The translations under genes and the position numbers were made by a program. Shown in pieces: positions 8,297 to 35,299 of a stretch of DNA of 64,000 nt. The stretch covers positions 18 through 64,017 of the forward strand of contig JAUWXF010000002.1 of the NCBI GenBank assembly GCA_030616475.1, read 5' to 3'. Origin of the DNA: Desulfobacterales bacterium. Its GTDB lineage: Bacteria; Desulfobacterota; Desulfobacteria; Desulfobacterales; C00003060. The notes under the pieces were generated by a model. It worked only from the letters and a program-made list of their open reading frames with translations. It was not told the DNA's origin and did not search any database. The number at the start of each line of letters is the position of its first letter. Position 1 is the first letter of the stretch.

Positions 8297-8611
8297 AGAC
8301 CCTTGAAAAGGTTTCTAGTTTTCCGAGGCTGGCAATTCCATGAGCTTGCTAATGATCGCAAAAATAGCCCCCTGGCGGCCTCACGGCCTAAAACAAAAAA
8401 AGCCTGAAGTCCCCGGCATAGGCAACTACCCCAAAGCCTCACAACTAAGGTATCTTCAATCCCTCAATGTATTGTTATGGGTTTCATTTGCGTATGGTTT
8501 GGGGAAACCCTTTGCCATAAAAAAGGCCTATATGTTTGCATATAGCCCAATTTGTTTATAATGTAAGAAAAAAGTTGCAAATCCGCTCAAGAAAGTTTAA
8601 TAGCCAGAGGC

Positions 8612-8788
8612 ATGAAGGTGGCTGTAAACATCAGAATGCCAGAAGACATGAAAAGGGTCCTTGACAAAATTGCTGGCAGTGAATTTCGGTCTCTCAATAG
8701 TCTGATCCTACAACTCTTGGATGAGCAGCTTGAATCCAAAGGTATCGATTGGCGCAAGGGAGCTGAAGAAAAAGAACCCAAGAAATAA
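8612..8788 (+). CDS. ribbon-helix-helix (CopG/Arc-like) small DNA-binding protein
   Basis: This 58-aa ORF is below the track cutoff: MKVAVNIRMPEDMKRVLDKIAGSEFRSLNSLILQLLDEQLESKGIDWRKGAEEKEPKK. The beta-strand then two-helix pattern is typical of RHH proteins. The GTG at 8618 is better spaced from AGAGG. It ends 21 nt upstream of the next gene. Confidence 0.6.
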   Translation: MKVAVNIRMPEDMKRVLDKIAGSEFRSLNSLILQLLDEQLESKGIDWRKGAEEKEPKK

Positions 8789-8809: not shown

Positions 8810-10756
8810 ATGGCTAAGAACTATATTTATAGGATGGACCATGATACCGGATTTGCCCCTAACACAAAGTATGGCATTTGTACGTTAAGCGGGTGCATGA
8901 AGACGACTGTCGAGCTGAGGGCGGAAAAGGGGAGTTGGGTTGTTGGCATAGGTGGAAAAGGTACGGGAAAACCAGATAAGCTGATTTACGCAATGGAGGT
9001 AGAAGAGAATCTTCTATATTCTGAATTCAAAAAAAGGTATCCGCGGAAGAGCAAGTATTTAGCCCCGGAAAATGCAGGGAGCAACGTATTGATTTCAAGG
9101 AAGTATTACTATTTTGGGCATAATGCGATAGATCTGCCAACCAATCTAAAGCATATGATCTGGGATAGGCAAGGATCCAAATGCATTCCCGACGATGACA
9201 TAAACACCCTAAGAAAATATCTCTCAAAGAAAGGATATGATCACGGAATATGGGGAAAACCAAACAATATTAACTACACAAAATGTATGAATTCTTGCGT
9301 TAAGAATTGCCATGGTTTGGGTCAAAAGGGTTTAGCTCAAAGAAAACCAAGAGTGTCTTGGGATTCTGCGTCACAAGAGGTAGATGCGCATATTAAGCAG
9401 CTAAAATCGGACTACAAAAGATACAGAGAACCGATACGTTTCCGTTTTCGAGATACTTGTAGCCAGTGGCTTAAGAGATCTGACAAATATACCCATATGA
9501 TCCATAGCTATCCAGCTAAATTGTTACCATATATTCCCATCTTTTTCCTATTCGACCCGTCATATGAAAATAGAACCGGATACCTTCTTGATCCCTTCGC
9601 TGGGACTGGAACTGTTCTATTAGAGGGAGTTATTCATCCTTATCAAAGAATGAATTCCCTTGGTGTTGAGATCAATCCTCTGGCCAGATTAATTTCCAAA
9701 GTCAAAACAACCCCGCTAGATACAACAGTCCTTCAGGAGATGGCTAACGACCTAGTAACTGCCATCGAGACAACTCCCGGCCAATTTGAGGTACCACAAT
9801 TTCCCAATATAGATTTCTGGTTTAAGAAGAAAGCTCAGAGAGATCTCGCAAGAATAAGATATCACATCGACTGCCTCGAAGATTCGGATTACAAAGACTT
9901 TTTTTGGGTATGTTTTTCATCCATTATTCGCCGTTCTTCAATGGCCGATCCGAAGATTGCCCCTCCCATCATTCTGAAACCGATAGTTTTCTCTGACAAA
10001 AAGCAGACAGAAAGAGTCCGCAAACAAATCATGGAAAAACAGAAACCTGAACCCATAAATTATTTCGACGAGGAAATCAAAAAAAATATTAGACGTCTCG
10101 ACGAATTTTGCGCAGCGTTCGAAGACAGAACTGTCAGGAGCGAAATAGTCTGGGACGATGTCAGAACATTACAGAAAGGAAATTATGTTCACAAAGGCCA
10201 AATAGATAAGTCCAGTGCAACCTCGCTGTCAGGAGTTGATCTTGTCATAACTTCACCACCTTACATCAATGCGCAGAAATATATAAGGACTCTAAAATTC
10301 GAACTGTTCTGGCTGGGCCTAATAGATTATGAGGATCTTGCGGAGATGGATAAGCAGTTCATAGGGACAGAACGTATTTACACGGAAGAGTATTCCAAAA
10401 TGATTCAAGTCGGCGAAAAGATTGCGGACAGTACAATTAAAGAAATATATCAAACCAATAAGCGACGTGCCGGCATTGTGGGTACCTATTATCGAGATAT
10501 GGCGGTGGCCATGAAACAAATCTATGATGCTTTGAACTCGGGGGGGCGCTTCATCTTGGTTGTTGGCAATAATTTGGTGTGCGGCAAACGAGTACAGAAT
10601 CATCATGTACTGGCAAACATCGCGACTCAACAGATAGGTTTTGAGCTAGAATTCATTGCACGGGATGAGATCAAGTCTCGTGGCCTAATAACGAAAAGGC
10701 ATGAAACCTCTGCAATCATCTCTGACGAATGGATAATGGTTTTGAATAAGAATTAG
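8810..10756 (+). CDS. fusion protein: Nmad2-like N-terminal domain + N6-adenine/N4-cytosine DNA methyltransferase
   Basis: 648 aa. The N-terminus YRMDHDTGFAPNTKYGICTLSGC resembles the Y-x-x-x-D-x-GFAPNP...CTLA-CKP signature of Nmad2-type proteins (from memory). The methyltransferase part has HSYPAKLLPYIP, LLDPFAGTGT (AdoMet motif I) and, about 210 aa later, DLVITSPPY (motif IV). This gives the order I-TRD-IV. Confidence 0.8.
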   Translation: MAKNYIYRMDHDTGFAPNTKYGICTLSGCMKTTVELRAEKGSWVVGIGGKGTGKPDKLIYAMEVEENLLYSEFKKRYPRKSKYLAPENAGSNVLISRKYYYFGHNAIDLPTNLKHMIWDRQGSKCIPDDDINTLRKYLSKKGYDHGIWGKPNNINYTKCMNSCVKNCHGLGQKGLAQRKPRVSWDSASQEVDAHIKQLKSDYKRYREPIRFRFRDTCSQWLKRSDKYTHMIHSYPAKLLPYIPIFFLFDPSYENRTGYLLDPFAGTGTVLLEGVIHPYQRMNSLGVEINPLARLISKVKTTPLDTTVLQEMANDLVTAIETTPGQFEVPQFPNIDFWFKKKAQRDLARIRYHIDCLEDSDYKDFFWVCFSSIIRRSSMADPKIAPPIILKPIVFSDKKQTERVRKQIMEKQKPEPINYFDEEIKKNIRRLDEFCAAFEDRTVRSEIVWDDVRTLQKGNYVHKGQIDKSSATSLSGVDLVITSPPYINAQKYIRTLKFELFWLGLIDYEDLAEMDKQFIGTERIYTEEYSKMIQVGEKIADSTIKEIYQTNKRRAGIVGTYYRDMAVAMKQIYDALNSGGRFILVVGNNLVCGKRVQNHHVLANIATQQIGFELEFIARDEIKSRGLITKRHETSAIISDEWIMVLNKN

Positions 10757-10766
10757 TCGGATCATT

Positions 10767-11906
10767 ATGACCAGATACCCACATCTTTATCTATCGGATT
10801 GGCCATTCCATACAATTCCCGAGGAGCAATACTGTACGTTCATGGCAGATCGTGAGCAAATGAATCAGGATATCAATTTACTGCTCAGGAATTTCTCTCG
10901 AAGAGATCATTCCACCATCAACGTCATGTGGGCTTGGTATGGTGCGGGGAAAACGCATACCCTAAGATACTTAGCACATCGGTGCAGGAAACAAAACGTT
11001 ACATTTGTGCCGATTTACAACGAATTTCCAAGGGATACTCGCTCCTTCCTGGACTTGTACACAACCTTTGTAGAAAAAATAGACATTGAACTCATTCAGG
11101 ACTTCTACCTTGAAGTATTTACAAGCCCTCGAAAAAACGAAGCACAAAAAGCACTTCATCGTGACTATCCAGACCTTTCGAATGCGATGAAGGCCCTCTG
11201 TACGGAACGGGAAGACAAGGCAACCCTTGCCATGTATTGGTTACGTGCCCAAAATCTACCACTAAAGGATCTGAAGCAAATAAACATAACTAGCAGGATC
11301 GATAAAGCTGAGAAAGCTCTTAAAGTGATCGCATGGCTCGTTCAGTTGTTCAACTGGGCTCAATCGGCTGAACAAACTATTCCCGCAAGAATCATATGGA
11401 TGATTGACGAATTTCAAAGGATCACAGACCGCCGAGTGCCGGTACAGGAAGAAATTAAGGGTTGCTTACTATCTGTTTTCAATCGTTGCCCGAGGTCTTT
11501 TTCATTGTTTTTGTCTTTTTCTGGAAACCCGGGCAAAAAGATGCCGTCCTGGATGTCAAAAGATCTAGCAGACCGAATTGGTATAGAGAAGGTTCTGGTT
11601 CTACCGCCGCTAACATCAGCAGAAGCAGTCAAATTTGTTTCTGATGTTCTCAGTCATTACAGGGAACCTGGCAAAAGTCCTCCAGTATCAACATTTCCTT
11701 TTGACAATGAAGCTATTGAAACTATTGTGCACCTGCTCCAGAAAAAAACAGAGATCAAACCCAGGACAATCATGCAGGCATGCAACGCTGTTCTTGAAGA
11801 GGCAGACTTGTTAATTGAAGCTGGAAATATGAAAGTAATTGGTAAAGAATTCGCCGAGTCAATTTTAAAGGACAGAGTATTTATCGACACCGAAGATGAG
11901 GGGTAA
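10767..11906 (+). CDS. P-loop NTPase (ORC/Cdc6- or BrxD/DUF2791-like), paralogue 1
   Basis: 379 aa. Walker A is WYGAGKTHTLRYL and Walker B is IIWMIDEFQRI. The architecture and length match the ORF at 12711-13865. Confidence 0.75.
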   Translation: MTRYPHLYLSDWPFHTIPEEQYCTFMADREQMNQDINLLLRNFSRRDHSTINVMWAWYGAGKTHTLRYLAHRCRKQNVTFVPIYNEFPRDTRSFLDLYTTFVEKIDIELIQDFYLEVFTSPRKNEAQKALHRDYPDLSNAMKALCTEREDKATLAMYWLRAQNLPLKDLKQINITSRIDKAEKALKVIAWLVQLFNWAQSAEQTIPARIIWMIDEFQRITDRRVPVQEEIKGCLLSVFNRCPRSFSLFLSFSGNPGKKMPSWMSKDLADRIGIEKVLVLPPLTSAEAVKFVSDVLSHYREPGKSPPVSTFPFDNEAIETIVHLLQKKTEIKPRTIMQACNAVLEEADLLIEAGNMKVIGKEFAESILKDRVFIDTEDEG

Positions 11907-11918
11907 GGCGGTTCCACT

Positions 11919-12710
11919 ATGCCGGGACTTCTAGCAAGCGAAGTGTTAGGACAGCCGGGTGTCTTTAGCTTTCTTAAGGAACTACACACACTTCAGGCAA
12001 TACGAACGGATAAAGTCTCTGATCTATTACTCACCTCTGGGATCGAGATGCCGGCTCCTGTGTTTAACCAGTTGACCGAGATTAGTATCATTTTTGAAGC
12101 CGCTAACAAGTTCTATTTATCCCCTAAAGGCCACCAAATGTGGTGGCTTTTGCAAGCAATAAATGGGGGTAATTTAAAAGAAATTTTACAGCAGCTCAGA
12201 CAGCTGGATCCAACCCTTTTTCCTTACGAGATCGTTACCGAGGGAATGACTGCTGACTTCATACACGGCCTTGCCTCGCTCCCTTCGTTCAGAAGGGTGC
12301 TGATCTGTTCTCCTTGGGTCTATCTAAAACCGAAAGTATTACACAAATTTGCTTATGCTGTGTATAAAGCACAGGAAAGAAGTCCGGGAAATAAAGTTGA
12401 TGTGATTGTCATTGCTCGGCCCCTAAAACAGACGGATCCACAGTATGATAAGCGTTTCGAAGTCTTTCGCTCTCTAACCAGGATCGGGGTAGAAATCGTT
12501 TTGCATGAGAAGTTACATTCAAAACTATATATCCGAGACCCCGGAACTGCCGGGGGGGTCAGTCAGGCGATTTTTGGTTCGGAGAATCTAACTAGCAAAA
12601 GAAATATAGAGCTTGGCATACGGATAACTAACGATACTGTAATAATCAATAAACTTATAACGTACTTCTTCGAACGGTATTCCGAATGTACACCATTCAA
12701 GGAGGATTAA
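11919..12710 (+). CDS. phospholipase-D-family (single HKD) nuclease with an N-terminal helical/wHTH-like region
   Basis: 263 aa. LHSKLYIRD matches HxK(x)4D, and it is followed by GSENLT (the conserved GSxN). Single-HKD proteins such as Nuc and BfiI act as dimers. Confidence 0.8.
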   Translation: MPGLLASEVLGQPGVFSFLKELHTLQAIRTDKVSDLLLTSGIEMPAPVFNQLTEISIIFEAANKFYLSPKGHQMWWLLQAINGGNLKEILQQLRQLDPTLFPYEIVTEGMTADFIHGLASLPSFRRVLICSPWVYLKPKVLHKFAYAVYKAQERSPGNKVDVIVIARPLKQTDPQYDKRFEVFRSLTRIGVEIVLHEKLHSKLYIRDPGTAGGVSQAIFGSENLTSKRNIELGIRITNDTVIINKLITYFFERYSECTPFKED

Positions 12711-13865
12711 ATGGCTGCTAAGGTTGATATTCAGACGCGTTACCTTTTAAGGAGAGCCAACTTCGTTCTTAACCCACTGTCGGATGAGGATGCCGACTTC
12801 TTTGCAGATCGCACGGGAGTGAACGTAAGCAAGATAATCGAAGATCTGCAAATAGATCTTGCTACCGGCTTGCCTCCAAAAAGGATGTTGTGGGGGCCTT
12901 ACGGTGGTGGAAAAACTCACACGCTTCAACATACGATGAGAAAACTTTCATCACTCACACCTGTTCATCCTGTGTACGTTGAGTGCCCGGACCTTTCGAA
13001 ACGATCCTCTTTCCTTGAGCTTTACCGTGAAGGTTTTATGCGAGGTTGTGGCCAGGACTTCATCCTTTCACTTTTTGAACGGACCAGAGAAAATGTGGGT
13101 TATGCGAAAAGGGAGGAAGTCCTCCGAAAGTTACGGGAAGCACTCCTTGATGAGGAACTTGCAAAAGCTGTTGCAATTCTTACAGATCCATCGGAACAGA
13201 ACAAGCTTTTGTTATGGGCATGGTTCTCAGGCGTTCCAGTGCCTCGTGGTGATTTATCAGATCTTAGTCAGACGCAAGATTTAACGTCGGCTGAACCTGC
13301 CCGTCTTGCTAATTATATTACAATCATTGGAAAGCTTGTTCAGGATCTTGAACAAAAGACATTGATTCTCGTCTTGGATGAGATGGACCGCATCGGGTTT
13401 GTTGGGCCAGACAATATTGTCCAGTTCAGGACAGCATTCACTCGCCTAATGGATCCAAACCAAAAATATGTGTCCGTACTGTTAGGCCTATCAGCAAAAA
13501 ACTTCCCTGATCTACCAGACATATTTGGTGGTGGAGGTCCAATAGTTAGCCGTATAGGTCGAGATGCAATCCAGGAAGTGCCAATGCTGGACGATCTTGA
13601 TGTTGAACCTTTCATTAAAAAAATTATCGGATTTTTGCGTGTCCCTGGTGCTGATGTCAATTCACTAATTACGAGCGCAAAGGAACAGACAACCGAAGAG
13701 CTTTCAGAGGCCATTTTTCCGTTCACCAAAGAAGCAATAGAGGCAATAAAGGTCGGGGTGGGCCAGGAAATGACACCACGAGAGATCACACTGAAGATGA
13801 CACGAGCAGCTGGGAAAGCTCATAATTATGACAAGCCCCTTGTTACATCCGATTTGGTTGACTAA
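12711..13865 (+). CDS. P-loop NTPase (ORC/Cdc6- or BrxD/DUF2791-like), paralogue 2
   Basis: 384 aa. Walker A is WGPYGGGKTHTLQH and Walker B is LILVLDEMDRI. It starts on the base after the PLD gene stop. Confidence 0.75.
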   Translation: MAAKVDIQTRYLLRRANFVLNPLSDEDADFFADRTGVNVSKIIEDLQIDLATGLPPKRMLWGPYGGGKTHTLQHTMRKLSSLTPVHPVYVECPDLSKRSSFLELYREGFMRGCGQDFILSLFERTRENVGYAKREEVLRKLREALLDEELAKAVAILTDPSEQNKLLLWAWFSGVPVPRGDLSDLSQTQDLTSAEPARLANYITIIGKLVQDLEQKTLILVLDEMDRIGFVGPDNIVQFRTAFTRLMDPNQKYVSVLLGLSAKNFPDLPDIFGGGGPIVSRIGRDAIQEVPMLDDLDVEPFIKKIIGFLRVPGADVNSLITSAKEQTTEELSEAIFPFTKEAIEAIKVGVGQEMTPREITLKMTRAAGKAHNYDKPLVTSDLVD

Positions 13866-13888
13866 TTCCGATTCATAGGAAAGCAGAA

Positions 13889-15361
13889 ATGGAACAATTT
13901 CCGATCAAGCAATTCAGATTAAGACACGGCTATTCCTTCGATCAATCTTTAGGGGGACCGGAATTTCGAAAAGATAATATTCTTATAGCTGGAACGACAG
14001 ACGATAGCCCATTGGAAGCCATTTTTCTTGGTAAGTTGGCGGAATATGACAATATGAGGGCTAATGTCTGGCTCGACCTGAATGGAGCACACGCGATATA
14101 TATCATGGGAAAACGGAGGAGTGGTAAAACTTTCACTCTGGGTGGCATTGCAGAAAGCCTTGCTTCGTCACAATGGATCAAGCAAGGCACACAAAAACAA
14201 GCAATATTGCTACTTGACACGATGAACGTTTTTCTTACTATGCCGCACACTGTTGAAGAAGTGTTCGGAAAGAATAGCGCTGAAGGCAAAGAGTTAAAAC
14301 AATGGGGCATTCAATCGGAGGATCTTCCAATAAAGCTATTCTATCCGAAAGGAACGCCTGCCCCACCTGAGGGGCTGACTCAGGAATTATCACTCCGAGC
14401 CTGTGATCTAACAGGAGACGACTGGGCCTCACTGTTTGGTGTAGACACCTTCAGCGAACCGATCGGTCAGCTTTTGTCAGAACTGTATGATCGGGTTGCA
14501 ATCGAGGGTTACGAAACAGTTCAGGAAAAAACCGTTACTGCAAATACAAACTACAGCATCTCAGATTTACTGAGATGCCTTAACGAATGCGGTGAGATAC
14601 AAAGATTTGAATTCAGAACAATAGAAGCGGCTAGACGTTACTTAGGCGCGGTAAACCGTCTTCCGATATTCTCTGAAACAGGGATTAATATTCAAGAACT
14701 TTTTCAAGAAAATCAGGTGTCAACCGTCCTTCTTCGTGACTTGGATCACAACTTACGGGGTCTCATGATTGGCATAATTGTCAAGAAAATTATGGAACAC
14801 CGGAGCATCTCTGACAGATATGAGCGCCTGGCTGACATTTACAGTTCAAAATATGAAACCCTCAAGCAAGACAATCCAGAAAAGGCTAAGGAGGTGCTTC
14901 AAAAATTTGAGGAATATATGATCCTGGCAAAGAAAGGCCTTCCGCGGGGCTGGATAATCATCGATGAGGCACATAATTATCTTCCAGCTAAAGGTATCAT
15001 AGCCTCTCGTACCCCTTTGAAGAAATATGTGAACGAGGGCCGTAACCTTGGTCTATCGATTGTTGTGGCTACGCAACAACCATCAGGGCTTGACCCGGCA
15101 ATCCAACGTAATGCTGACATTCAAATCATACACTCCATGACTATGAGCGATGATATCCAGACGGCAGAGCGTATGATAAATACCTTCGTGCCAGAGTCAG
15201 TTGTTTATGATAATCGTGACCGTATTACCACTCGAGTTTTTGAAAAGATGATTCGCAGCCTTGATTTGGGATTTGCAGTTATTTCAAACGAAAGGATGAA
15301 TAGGGTCTTTCCCATCAAGGTTCGTCCGAGGATAACTGTTCATGGCGGGAAGAAATACTAA
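13889..15361 (+). CDS. HerA/FtsK-like (DUF87-type) ATPase
   Basis: 490 aa. Walker A is IMGKRRSGKTFTLGG and Walker B is WIIIDEAHNYLP. GRNLGLSIVVATQQPSGLDPAI is typical of HerA-like translocases. Confidence 0.75.
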   Translation: MEQFPIKQFRLRHGYSFDQSLGGPEFRKDNILIAGTTDDSPLEAIFLGKLAEYDNMRANVWLDLNGAHAIYIMGKRRSGKTFTLGGIAESLASSQWIKQGTQKQAILLLDTMNVFLTMPHTVEEVFGKNSAEGKELKQWGIQSEDLPIKLFYPKGTPAPPEGLTQELSLRACDLTGDDWASLFGVDTFSEPIGQLLSELYDRVAIEGYETVQEKTVTANTNYSISDLLRCLNECGEIQRFEFRTIEAARRYLGAVNRLPIFSETGINIQELFQENQVSTVLLRDLDHNLRGLMIGIIVKKIMEHRSISDRYERLADIYSSKYETLKQDNPEKAKEVLQKFEEYMILAKKGLPRGWIIIDEAHNYLPAKGIIASRTPLKKYVNEGRNLGLSIVVATQQPSGLDPAIQRNADIQIIHSMTMSDDIQTAERMINTFVPESVVYDNRDRITTRVFEKMIRSLDLGFAVISNERMNRVFPIKVRPRITVHGGKKY

Positions 15362-16458
15362 TGGAAATAAGACTTCTGCTGAAGACACATTATCAAATAA
15401 GCAAACCAGGCATTTTTTCAGTTCTTGTACGTAAATGTACCTCTGCGGATCAAAGTACTTACCCGGAAGTAATTTCGGAACGGCTAGCTAATATAAAGTT
15501 TGAAACCATTGCACTGAACAAGGAATCTGCCAAATTTGCAGTTGCCATGGCTCAGTCTTTTGGTTTCATTACAAGAAATATGTTTTGGGGCTGGAAAGGC
15601 CGTGCAATAAACATATTGCTCGAGGAAAGCCCAAGAGAAGAATCAGATGATTATCTTGACCTCACACCTGCGGAAAAGATACTTTATCTAAAATATTACT
15701 TGGAGGCTGACGGTGCAACGATACTTGAAATCTGCAGGAGGCTTAGGTCAAGGGGTAAAATATCCCGTAACGAACTGCTTTCGAGCGATTTTATTGACCA
15801 GATCTTTATTGGTGTCTGGGAGACTTATAGACAACTTGCATTAGATCTTAGCCAAAAGGTTCAACTAAGAGGGAATATACAAAAGCTTAAATCAAGACCG
15901 TATACTTTCAAAACGAGGATTCACAAAGCACTCGCACATGTGGCGCCGTTGGTAGATTTTGATTTTATTGAACGGAGAAAAGAAAGGAATGAAATAATCT
16001 TTGTCCCTAAAAGCAGTAATAGCTCGTCACCTATGGATAAGCTAACGCAAGAATTGGATACCATTGAAACTATGGAATGGCGATTTTCAAAGTTCCAACA
16101 TTTCGAAATAATTGGCAACATCTACGATTTGGAACCCGTTGGTTATGATTCAGATAGTCATACGGACTTGTTGCGCGAAAACATTATTAAAACCTATATA
16201 AAAGCGCGTACCGAACCATCCAAAATGGCCTCAATTGCAGTAATATCAGATGTAATTTCCGCAAAGTTTCTGGCAGAGAAAGGAATTTTGGTCGAAAGGC
16301 CGGATATTGAAATAGAATTAGACAGGTTAAAGTCAAACTATTCTCCCGATGTTCATTACCACGTAGATATGGGTGGGAAAAAGGCTTTCATCGTTCTTTC
16401 AGATAGGCTCTGCAACTCTGTCCATAAGTCTACAAAAACTTCGGCTAAAAGCAGGTAA
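15361..16458 (+). CDS. hypothetical protein (last gene of the operon; possible central wHTH)
   Basis: 365 aa. Its ATG overlaps the upstream TAA by 1 nt. I recognise no motif. LEADGATILEICRRLRSRGKISRNELL looks HTH-like. Confidence 0.6.
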   Translation: MEIRLLLKTHYQISKPGIFSVLVRKCTSADQSTYPEVISERLANIKFETIALNKESAKFAVAMAQSFGFITRNMFWGWKGRAINILLEESPREESDDYLDLTPAEKILYLKYYLEADGATILEICRRLRSRGKISRNELLSSDFIDQIFIGVWETYRQLALDLSQKVQLRGNIQKLKSRPYTFKTRIHKALAHVAPLVDFDFIERRKERNEIIFVPKSSNSSSPMDKLTQELDTIETMEWRFSKFQHFEIIGNIYDLEPVGYDSDSHTDLLRENIIKTYIKARTEPSKMASIAVISDVISAKFLAEKGILVERPDIEIELDRLKSNYSPDVHYHVDMGGKKAFIVLSDRLCNSVHKSTKTSAKSR

Positions 16459-35201: not shown

Positions 35202-35299
35202 TGGCGGAAGTGCATGGGAATCGAACCCACCCGGGACGGTTTTAGCGCCCCACACCGGATTTGAAGTCCGGGAGCCCCACCAGTGAGCTATCCACTTCC
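35202..35299 (-). tRNA. selC: tRNA-Sec (anticodon TCA)
   Basis: The reverse complement is GGAAGTGGATAGCTCACTGGTGGGGCTCCCGGACTTCAAATCCGGTGTGGGGCGCTAAAACCGTCCCGGGTGGGTTCGATTCCCATGCACTTCCGCCA. It has a long acceptor stem, a CTTCAAA anticodon loop and a long extra arm. It aligns well with E. coli selC from memory. Confidence 0.9.

Follow-up and report, generated by a model that had tools for sequence, protein, structure and literature searches.

A covalent Nmad2-methyltransferase fusion in a Desulfobacterales operon: a new domain architecture with a putative modified-base-reading head

INTRODUCTION

What could a small Nmad2 domain be doing at the front of a DNA methyltransferase? The question is raised by an open reading frame (ORF) at positions 8810..10756, forward strand, of a 64,000-nucleotide stretch of DNA, referred to below as the window, from contig JAUWXF010000002.1 of a Desulfobacterales bacterium (GCA_030616475.1). 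The source is a metagenome-assembled genome (MAG) of 360 contigs, 92% complete with 2.3% contamination. An earlier reading of the sequence alone, hereafter the original prediction, held that roughly the first 170 amino acids (aa) of the product are Nmad2-like, that Nmad2 is normally a stand-alone protein, that here it is covalently fused to a methyltransferase of alpha-type motif order and that the added part is either a sensor or regulatory head or the source of a second chemistry. A Pfam profile search and a structure prediction of the N-terminal part had been proposed as checks.

The Nmad names reportedly go back to Iyer et al., 2013, in NAR. Nmad2 is, to our knowledge, a catalogued family without biochemical characterisation, and a literature search for Nmad2 gave no relevant main-text match. 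Members of the family are now appearing in anti-phage systems, both predicted and experimentally validated.

RESULTS

The fusion gene

The ORF encodes a single protein of 648 aa (P0001) in which both domains were matched significantly. The N-terminal part, aa 1-154 (8810..9271), was identified as Nmad2 (PF18753) with an E value of 6.6e-27 and a score of 94.8 bits, the gathering cut-off being 26.1, and contains the signature DxGFAPN...CTLxxC (8828-8896). A linker of 27 residues, aa 155-181 (9272..9352), leads to an in-frame GTG codon, V182 (9353..9355), from which an N6/N4 amino-methyltransferase with the alpha-type motif order extends over the last 467 residues to the end of the ORF (9353..10756); the PADLOC Type II methyltransferase profile (MTase_II PDLC03362) matches aa 224-647 with E 1.6e-49. 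All of these features are on the + strand. The strings quoted in the original prediction were found at aa 7-18 (YRMDHDTGFAPN) and 24-29 (CTLSGC) of the head, and at aa 232-243 (HSYPAKLLPYIP), 259-268 (LLDPFAGTGT) and 482-485 (SPPY) of the methyltransferase. The opposite strand is stop-rich, as are both other frames, while the Nmad2 frame runs on unbroken. The predicted Nmad2-like N-terminus and its covalent attachment to the methyltransferase were thus both confirmed, and the joint is most probably a real gene fusion, evolutionarily young.

Origin of the junction

The history of the joint can be read by comparison with a second metagenome contig, L001, in which the methyltransferase and its five partner genes recur in unchanged order at 70–85% aa identity. 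L001 has neither the Nmad2 part nor the small ribbon-helix-helix (RHH) gene that precedes it in the window. The GTG start of the L001 methyltransferase aligns exactly with the GTG of V182, which marks this codon as the ancestral start of a stand-alone methyltransferase. Ungapped homology between the two extends a further 63 nt 5' of the GTG (window bases 9290-9352). The best local match within this stretch covers 44 nt at 75% identity and scores 33, against 19.6 ± 2.3 with a maximum of 28 in 300 shuffles. In L001 the 63 nt are non-coding and form the untranslated leader of the methyltransferase gene. Because of this homology, the linker residues aa 161-181 are the former leader, now stop-free and translated.

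Two further differences concern the same stretch. The window's CAA for Gln177 corresponds to an in-frame TAG in L001, a change that takes two substitutions, and L001 has a Shine-Dalgarno-like GAGGA upstream of its GTG where the window has AAAGAAA. Since the Shine-Dalgarno-like box before the old start has been lost, the methyltransferase is probably made only as the fusion. On these sequence comparisons the junction looks adapted: it is stop-free and the old ribosome-binding site has gone.

The Cys codons of the window linker read as Ser and Tyr codons in L001, each one substitution away, which is compatible both with insertion of the Nmad2 gene in the window lineage and with an ancestral Nmad2 gene that was lost in L001. 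In place of the RHH gene and Nmad2, L001 has a short frame (L001:300-454) with a YARHG-like motif (NEMFARHGYRF), so the 5' ends of the two operons are unrelated beyond the 63-nt leader.

Rarity of the fusion

A whole-protein search of 5.8 billion clusters placed the fusion in a cluster with one member sequence. All of the best 119 relatives listed lack the head; they are 368-499 aa long, match only the methyltransferase part (up to 80% identity) and start at or near V182, the closest of them (P0002-P0012) at it or no more than about 12 residues from it. A search with the head alone, restricted to proteins 356-1134 aa long, returned the window's own protein and no other. An exhaustive HMMER search with the head against 1.84 billion representatives gave 974 relatives, of which the best 150 are nearly all 60-260 aa long, in agreement with the earlier view of Nmad2 as normally a stand-alone protein. 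A profile search of proteins of at least 395 aa found 13 others, in which Nmad2 is joined to Nmad3, TIR, Macro, SLOG cluster2 or PIN_12; none of these 13 is joined to a methyltransferase.

The same picture was obtained at the level of genomes. Nmad2 was present in 9 of the 401 genomes sampled from the phylum, on ORFs of 171-254 aa in all except the fusion genome. No close relative of the fusion was found in 36 genomes of the same genus and 24 of the same order, where the best match reached 29% identity and covered the methyltransferase part only. The parts of the Nmad2-methyltransferase protein are of known kinds; their combination is new and was seen once in these searches.

One of the 13, the NCBI protein P0283 (670 aa), has a mixed set of domains, in which an incomplete Nmad2 N-terminus stands together with fragments of AAA-ATPase_like, PDDEXK_9 and MFS_2. 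Such a mixture is more likely to come from a gene-calling error or a chimera than to be a true architecture.

The Nmad2 head as a member of its family

The PF18753 match falls into two pieces, aa 1-74 and approximately aa 87-162, which cover profile positions 1-75 and 123-198, and a six-frame search of the genome gave the same Nmad2 result as the ORF-level Pfam scan. The 200-position profile is not covered in full, about 47 positions (76-122) being absent. The closest stand-alone relatives (P0121-P0140, L002, L005 and L006) have the same gap, and the missing positions are therefore a trait of a short subtype and not damage. In an alignment of 49 sequences, all 17 invariant or near-invariant Nmad2 positions are kept in the window protein (Y7, D12, G14, A16, P17, C24, L26, C29, G41, G46, Y60, M62, L94, Y101, G103, P110 and P151), so the head is not decaying.

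The closest stand-alone relatives of the head, at 70-74% identity, come from archaeal MAGs, namely Archaeoglobus sp. JdFR-27 (L051/L002) and Hadarchaeota (L050). This sharing suggests, at the sequence level, a transfer between domains of life. The stand-alone gene of Archaeoglobus sp. JdFR-27 has an HD-domain protein and an Hjc-like nuclease as neighbours, not Nmad3. No relative of the short subtype was found in phage genomes.

Predicted fold of the head

The structure of aa 1-175 was predicted with AlphaFold (AF2) from the 49-sequence alignment, giving a mean predicted local distance difference test (pLDDT) of 91.6 and a predicted template modelling score (pTM) of 0.84. Only the linker is disordered, with pLDDT 51-77 after aa 150. 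The structure prediction proposed as a check thus returned a confident model, and one whose best structural matches are YTH/EVE/ASCH-like. Foldseek against the PDB gave ASCH, YTH (Mmi1, YTHDF1/2) and EVE (PH1033) domains, THYN1, the DrmA N-terminus and the McrB N-domains of S. marinus and T. gammatolerans, with E values of about 1e-3, probabilities of up to 1.00 and TM-scores of 0.40-0.47 for the YTH/EVE/ASCH rows. VIA-align, an independent structure search of 48,161 representative chains, placed only YTH, EVE, ASCH, McrB-N and VcaM4I-EVE structures in its top 21 rows (Z 5.4-8.9 over 112-133 aligned residues), after which Z fell to 4.4 or below. Among these rows were the YTH domains of YTHDC2 (6k6u; Z 8.9, 112 aa, root-mean-square deviation 2.7) and MRB1 (Z 8.8), PH1033 EVE (1wmm) and ZmASCH (5guq), both at Z 8.0, VcaM4I EVE-HNH at Z 7.2 and T. 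gammatolerans McrB-N bound to 5-methylcytosine DNA at Z 6.8.

On the evidence of the model, Nmad2 is predicted to be a PUA-like beta-barrel of the YTH/EVE/ASCH modified-base-reader type. The PUA-like fold of YTH, EVE and ASCH domains binds flipped-out modified bases, and in the head the conserved aromatic residues Y7, F15, Y60 and Y101 are candidates for a base pocket, no more. The Pfam scan of the fusion ORF gave no PUA-clan family, and a search of the ESM Atlas returned Nmad2 clusters again and no structure.

The company that Nmad2 keeps

Nmad3 (PF18754) is the gene next after Nmad2 in the loci L005 and L006 and in genome G128, and the two domains also occur fused in both orders. A model of Nmad3 (L006:8549-9247, L005:8558-9262; pLDDT 86.2) matched EVE, ASCH, YTH and McrB-N structures, with VIA-align Z scores of 8.5 for PH1033 EVE, 8.1 for VcaM4I and 8.0 for ZmASCH; its invariant residues are R7, D11, H70, D72 and P73. 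From these models Nmad2 and Nmad3 look like a pair of reader-fold proteins. Sequence homology between the two is not claimed, as profile-profile comparison gave a probability of only 12%.

Nmad2 also stands directly behind TIR genes. Two-gene TIR-Nmad2 modules with spacers of 0-3 nt are found on plasmids of Gloeothece (NC_011732.1, L072, 3500-4633) and Cupriavidus (NZ_CP062806.1, L073, 3533-4627), with genes for a MazG-like pyrophosphohydrolase, a nucleotide kinase, uracil-DNA glycosylase (UDG), SIR2 and CBASS phospholipase as neighbours. These surroundings are typical defence islands. An Nmad2 protein is, moreover, listed in a defence unit of E. coli that was validated experimentally and reported with DefensePredictor (PMC13092281, supplementary table); the unit also has a thymidylate synthase, a deoxynucleoside monophosphate (dNMP) kinase and a 5-hydroxymethyldeoxyuridine (5-hmdU) DNA kinase, and the function of its Nmad2 protein is called unknown there (PMC13092281). 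Because a small reader-fold domain sits on or next to varied effectors (TIR, PIN, Macro, SLOG), Nmad2 would be expected to be a sensor.

The methyltransferase half

In the second half of the protein DPFAGTG (aa 261-267), within motif I (9584-9613), precedes motif IV, an SPPY (10253-10264) that fits the pattern (D/N/S)PP(Y/F), and the presumed target-recognition region forms the long insert between them. The alpha-type order that had been predicted is therefore present, with a spacing of 221 residues counted from D261 or 223 from L259 where about 210 had been estimated. The 221-residue spacing is identical in the close stand-alone relatives compared, which indicates that the methyltransferase half is unchanged by the fusion, and SPPY is found in 118 of the 119 relatives listed. 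The Pfam N6_N4_Mtase family stays under its cut-off (21.4 against 26.7 bits), and the only solved relative found by sequence, 2zie, is marginal (E 0.002). SPPY is typical of N4-cytosine enzymes. The motif thus suggests N4-methylcytosine (m4C) as the product, N6-methyladenine (m6A) being possible.

The operon and its surroundings

The fusion gene is the second gene of a co-oriented, tightly spaced operon on the + strand. A sigma-70-like promoter candidate upstream of the first gene (8535..8562, TTTGCA-16-TATAAT) matches the consensus at 10 of 12 positions and is weak, such sites being no more frequent than in shuffled sequence. The first gene (8612..8788) encodes a 58-aa Arc/CopG RHH protein (Pfam Arc, E 2.4e-7, 30.9 bits against 20.4), a probable transcriptional controller, for which tblastn found no counterpart in any of the loci compared. 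Downstream of the fusion are five genes (10767..16458), the ones kept in order in L001. They encode an AAA_22 ATPase (10767-11906; Pfam), a 263-aa PLD-type protein (11919-12710), a second ATPase of the AAA_22/AAA_16 type (12711-13865; Pfam), a mad8/HerA-like ATPase of 490 aa (13889-15361; PADLOC mad8, E 5e-20) and a 365-aa protein without an assigned family (15361-16458). The PLD-type protein has a single HxKx4D...GSxN motif (HSKLYIRD...GSEN) in its translation, with Pfam NgoFVII PLD only marginal (E 0.1), and is probably the nuclease of the operon. With a methyltransferase, a PLD nuclease, three ATPases and one further protein, the six genes shared with L001 resemble a restriction-modification defence operon.

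Membership of MADS, the methylation-associated defense system, was considered and rejected. The mad1-mad8 set is not present, and only the 490-aa ATPase clearly matches, to mad8. The 379-aa ATPase reached only E 0.0057 against mad8, no other mad profile was among the PADLOC matches, and neither the methyltransferase, which matches generic type II profiles, nor the remaining genes matched.

The GC content is 0.41 in the head, 0.42 in the methyltransferase and 0.39-0.46 in the rest of the operon, against 0.51-0.56 in the host backbone, where the flanking housekeeping genes fmt, rsmB and a PASTA-domain gene lie at 51-56%. The operon opens a low-GC stretch of about 26 kb (window 8000-34000; 37-47% against 50-54%) that ends just before a tRNA-SeC gene (35202-35299). 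Within this stretch there are also a liv-type ABC transporter, broken up by radical SAM and methyltransferase genes, and cassette-like genes for DUF6946, NERD, an RNase H-like exonuclease and a DEAD/MZB helicase.

DISCUSSION

The Nmad2 head as a proposed reader of modified bases

The reading that we prefer, with a probability of about 0.5, is that the Nmad2 head recognises a modified or flipped base and that this binding guides or gates the methyltransferase or its complex. An Nmad2 gene would have become joined in frame to the 5' leader of a methyltransferase gene, the leader becoming the linker and the old GTG becoming Val182. The methyltransferase half alone would mark host DNA as self, by m4C or m6A, and the PLD nuclease and the ATPases would restrict unmarked DNA, a step drawn from domain content and from analogy with restriction-modification and MADS (PMC13662399). 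The head would then be a nucleic-acid or modified-base binding module and not a second catalytic one. It might recognise the enzyme's own mark on hemimethylated DNA, so that maintenance is favoured over de novo methylation, or it might recognise foreign hypermodified DNA. The fusion, its uniqueness, the predicted fold and the operon are results of the analysis; the binding of such a ligand and its effect on methylation or restriction we infer. Of the two roles offered in the original prediction, the sensor or regulatory head has gained from the PUA-like fold and the effector fusion partners, while nothing found supports the second chemistry.

Several observations weigh against a reading head. 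The fusion occurs on one contig of one MAG only. The L001 operon evidently works without the head, which may therefore be dispensable, and Nmad3, the usual partner of Nmad2, is missing from the fusion's genome, which is 92% complete. The strong conservation of D12, C24 and C29 in 49 diverse sequences is a pattern more of an enzyme or metal site than of an aromatic cage. As to the fold, Z scores of 8-9 are only moderately higher than unrelated models reach, the Nmad2 profile gave chance matches only against the PDB sequences and so no link to a solved PUA-like protein, and the PUA-like fold includes enzymes (YqfB amidohydrolase, ZmASCH nuclease). Fold likeness alone does not show function.

Alternative explanations

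Some of these observations bear on the alternative that Nmad2 is an enzyme which adds a further modification to the base that is methylated or to one next to it, or which acts on a nucleotide, giving a mark beyond plain m4C or m6A. The family name and genomic company point to nucleotide-modification pathways, given the thymidylate synthase, dNMP kinase and 5-hmdU DNA kinase of the validated unit and the MazG and UDG genes on the plasmids, and the residues D12, C24 and C29 are invariant or nearly so. ZmASCH is among the best structural matches, with YqfB present at low Z. The best matches are, however, overwhelmingly non-catalytic readers, and profile scans detected no cofactor-binding or known catalytic motif in the head. 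The other fusion partners (TIR, PIN, Macro and SLOG) are themselves catalytic or effector parts, as would fit an Nmad2 sensor, and the L001 operon indicates that the self-mark does not need Nmad2. An enzymatic Nmad2 is therefore considered unlikely.

It is also improbable, on the present balance, that the fusion is real but incidental, having arisen when a stop was lost between two neighbouring, independent defence genes, with Nmad2 keeping a usual role that has nothing to do with methylation or with the methyltransferase also being made from an internal start. None of the other relatives examined has the fusion, its linker is simply the former methyltransferase leader, the ancestral GTG is still in frame and defence genes are often packed together without joint function. 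Against this, neither half is decaying, as all conserved residues of Nmad2 and the motifs of the methyltransferase have been kept; the loss of the Shine-Dalgarno-like sequence that preceded the old start speaks against translation of the methyltransferase by itself, and reader-methyltransferase fusions recur in other families (PMC7641849).

That the fusion is an artefact, two real genes whose linker stop was removed by a chimera or a base error, is very unlikely even with a fragmented MAG as the source, one member sequence on one contig and both linker Gln codons being CAA, one substitution from TAA, as the Nmad2 frame is uninterrupted between stop-rich frames, base composition is even over the junction and along the operon, a chimera would by chance have had to give an in-frame join free of stops, and the two substitutions between TAG and CAA together with the changed Shine-Dalgarno-like sequence look like evolution and not like a single error.

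What a reading head would mean

Returning to the head as a modified-base reader, the YTH/EVE/ASCH-type fold gives both Nmad2 and Nmad3 a concrete functional hypothesis, the binding of a modified or flipped base. The head-bearing window operon and the head-less L001 operon form a natural experimental pair. Should the head shift methylation towards DNA that is already marked, or bring the system to phage DNA that is modified, this would reveal how defence systems tune the marking of self and non-self; if it does nothing, the fusion is a young accident.

A bolder form of the proposal, suggested by analogy with UHRF1-SRA and DNMT1 and regarded by us as a long shot, is that the head reads the mark written by its own methyltransferase, so that the protein would be a prokaryotic maintenance methylase with a preference for hemimethylated host DNA. 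Were this true, incoming unmethylated phage DNA would rarely be methylated de novo, and the route of epigenetic escape, a limit on restriction-modification and MADS-type defences, would be shut. In a wider sense, defence systems would have in Nmad2 and Nmad3 a new and widespread pair of families that read modified bases.

Comparison with known systems

The order of motifs in alpha-class amino-methyltransferases is X-I-TRD-IV-VIII in the Malone-Blumenthal-Cheng classification, TRD being the target-recognition domain. The window protein resembles the N6-adenine and N4-cytosine enzymes of this class in having motif I (FxGxG-type) 221 residues before SPPY with a variable region between, and differs from them in its extra N-terminal extension of 181 aa. 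As a member of the Nmad2 family, its head gives a significant hidden Markov model match with all conserved positions kept; it differs in being fused to a DNA methyltransferase, in belonging to the short subtype and in coming from a genome that lacks Nmad3.

MADS (mad1-mad8) is likewise a multi-gene defence operon of methyltransferase, ATPases and nuclease, and shares a mad8-like ATPase with the window (PMC13662399). However, the window has six genes where MADS has eight, only mad8 matches clearly, and the Pfam and PADLOC scans brought up neither a Toprim/OLD-type module nor a kinase domain.

Modification-dependent restriction enzymes such as VcaM4I (EVE-HNH), T. gammatolerans McrB with its YTH-like N-domain and PD-T4-3 have a sensing head at the N-terminus, and the same fold is predicted for Nmad2. 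Their head is joined to a nuclease or to a GTPase motor, and sets off the cleavage of modified DNA, whereas that of the window protein is carried on a protective methyltransferase.

A direct precedent for the layout is given by the DCD domains (EVE-like, PUA superfamily), which are often fused to Rossmann-fold methyltransferases beside nuclease genes; fusions of EVE itself to a methyltransferase are stated to be extremely rare (Bell, Wolf & Koonin 2020, PMC7641849). The reader of the window protein is different, being Nmad2 with no detectable sequence relation to DCD or EVE, and so is its nuclease, of the PLD type and not PD-(D/E)xK, to which three ATPases are added. What the two have in common is an N-terminal PUA-like domain of the reader type on a DNA methyltransferase whose operon includes a nuclease gene, and the same proposed logic, in which a reader would direct methylation in the context of restriction.

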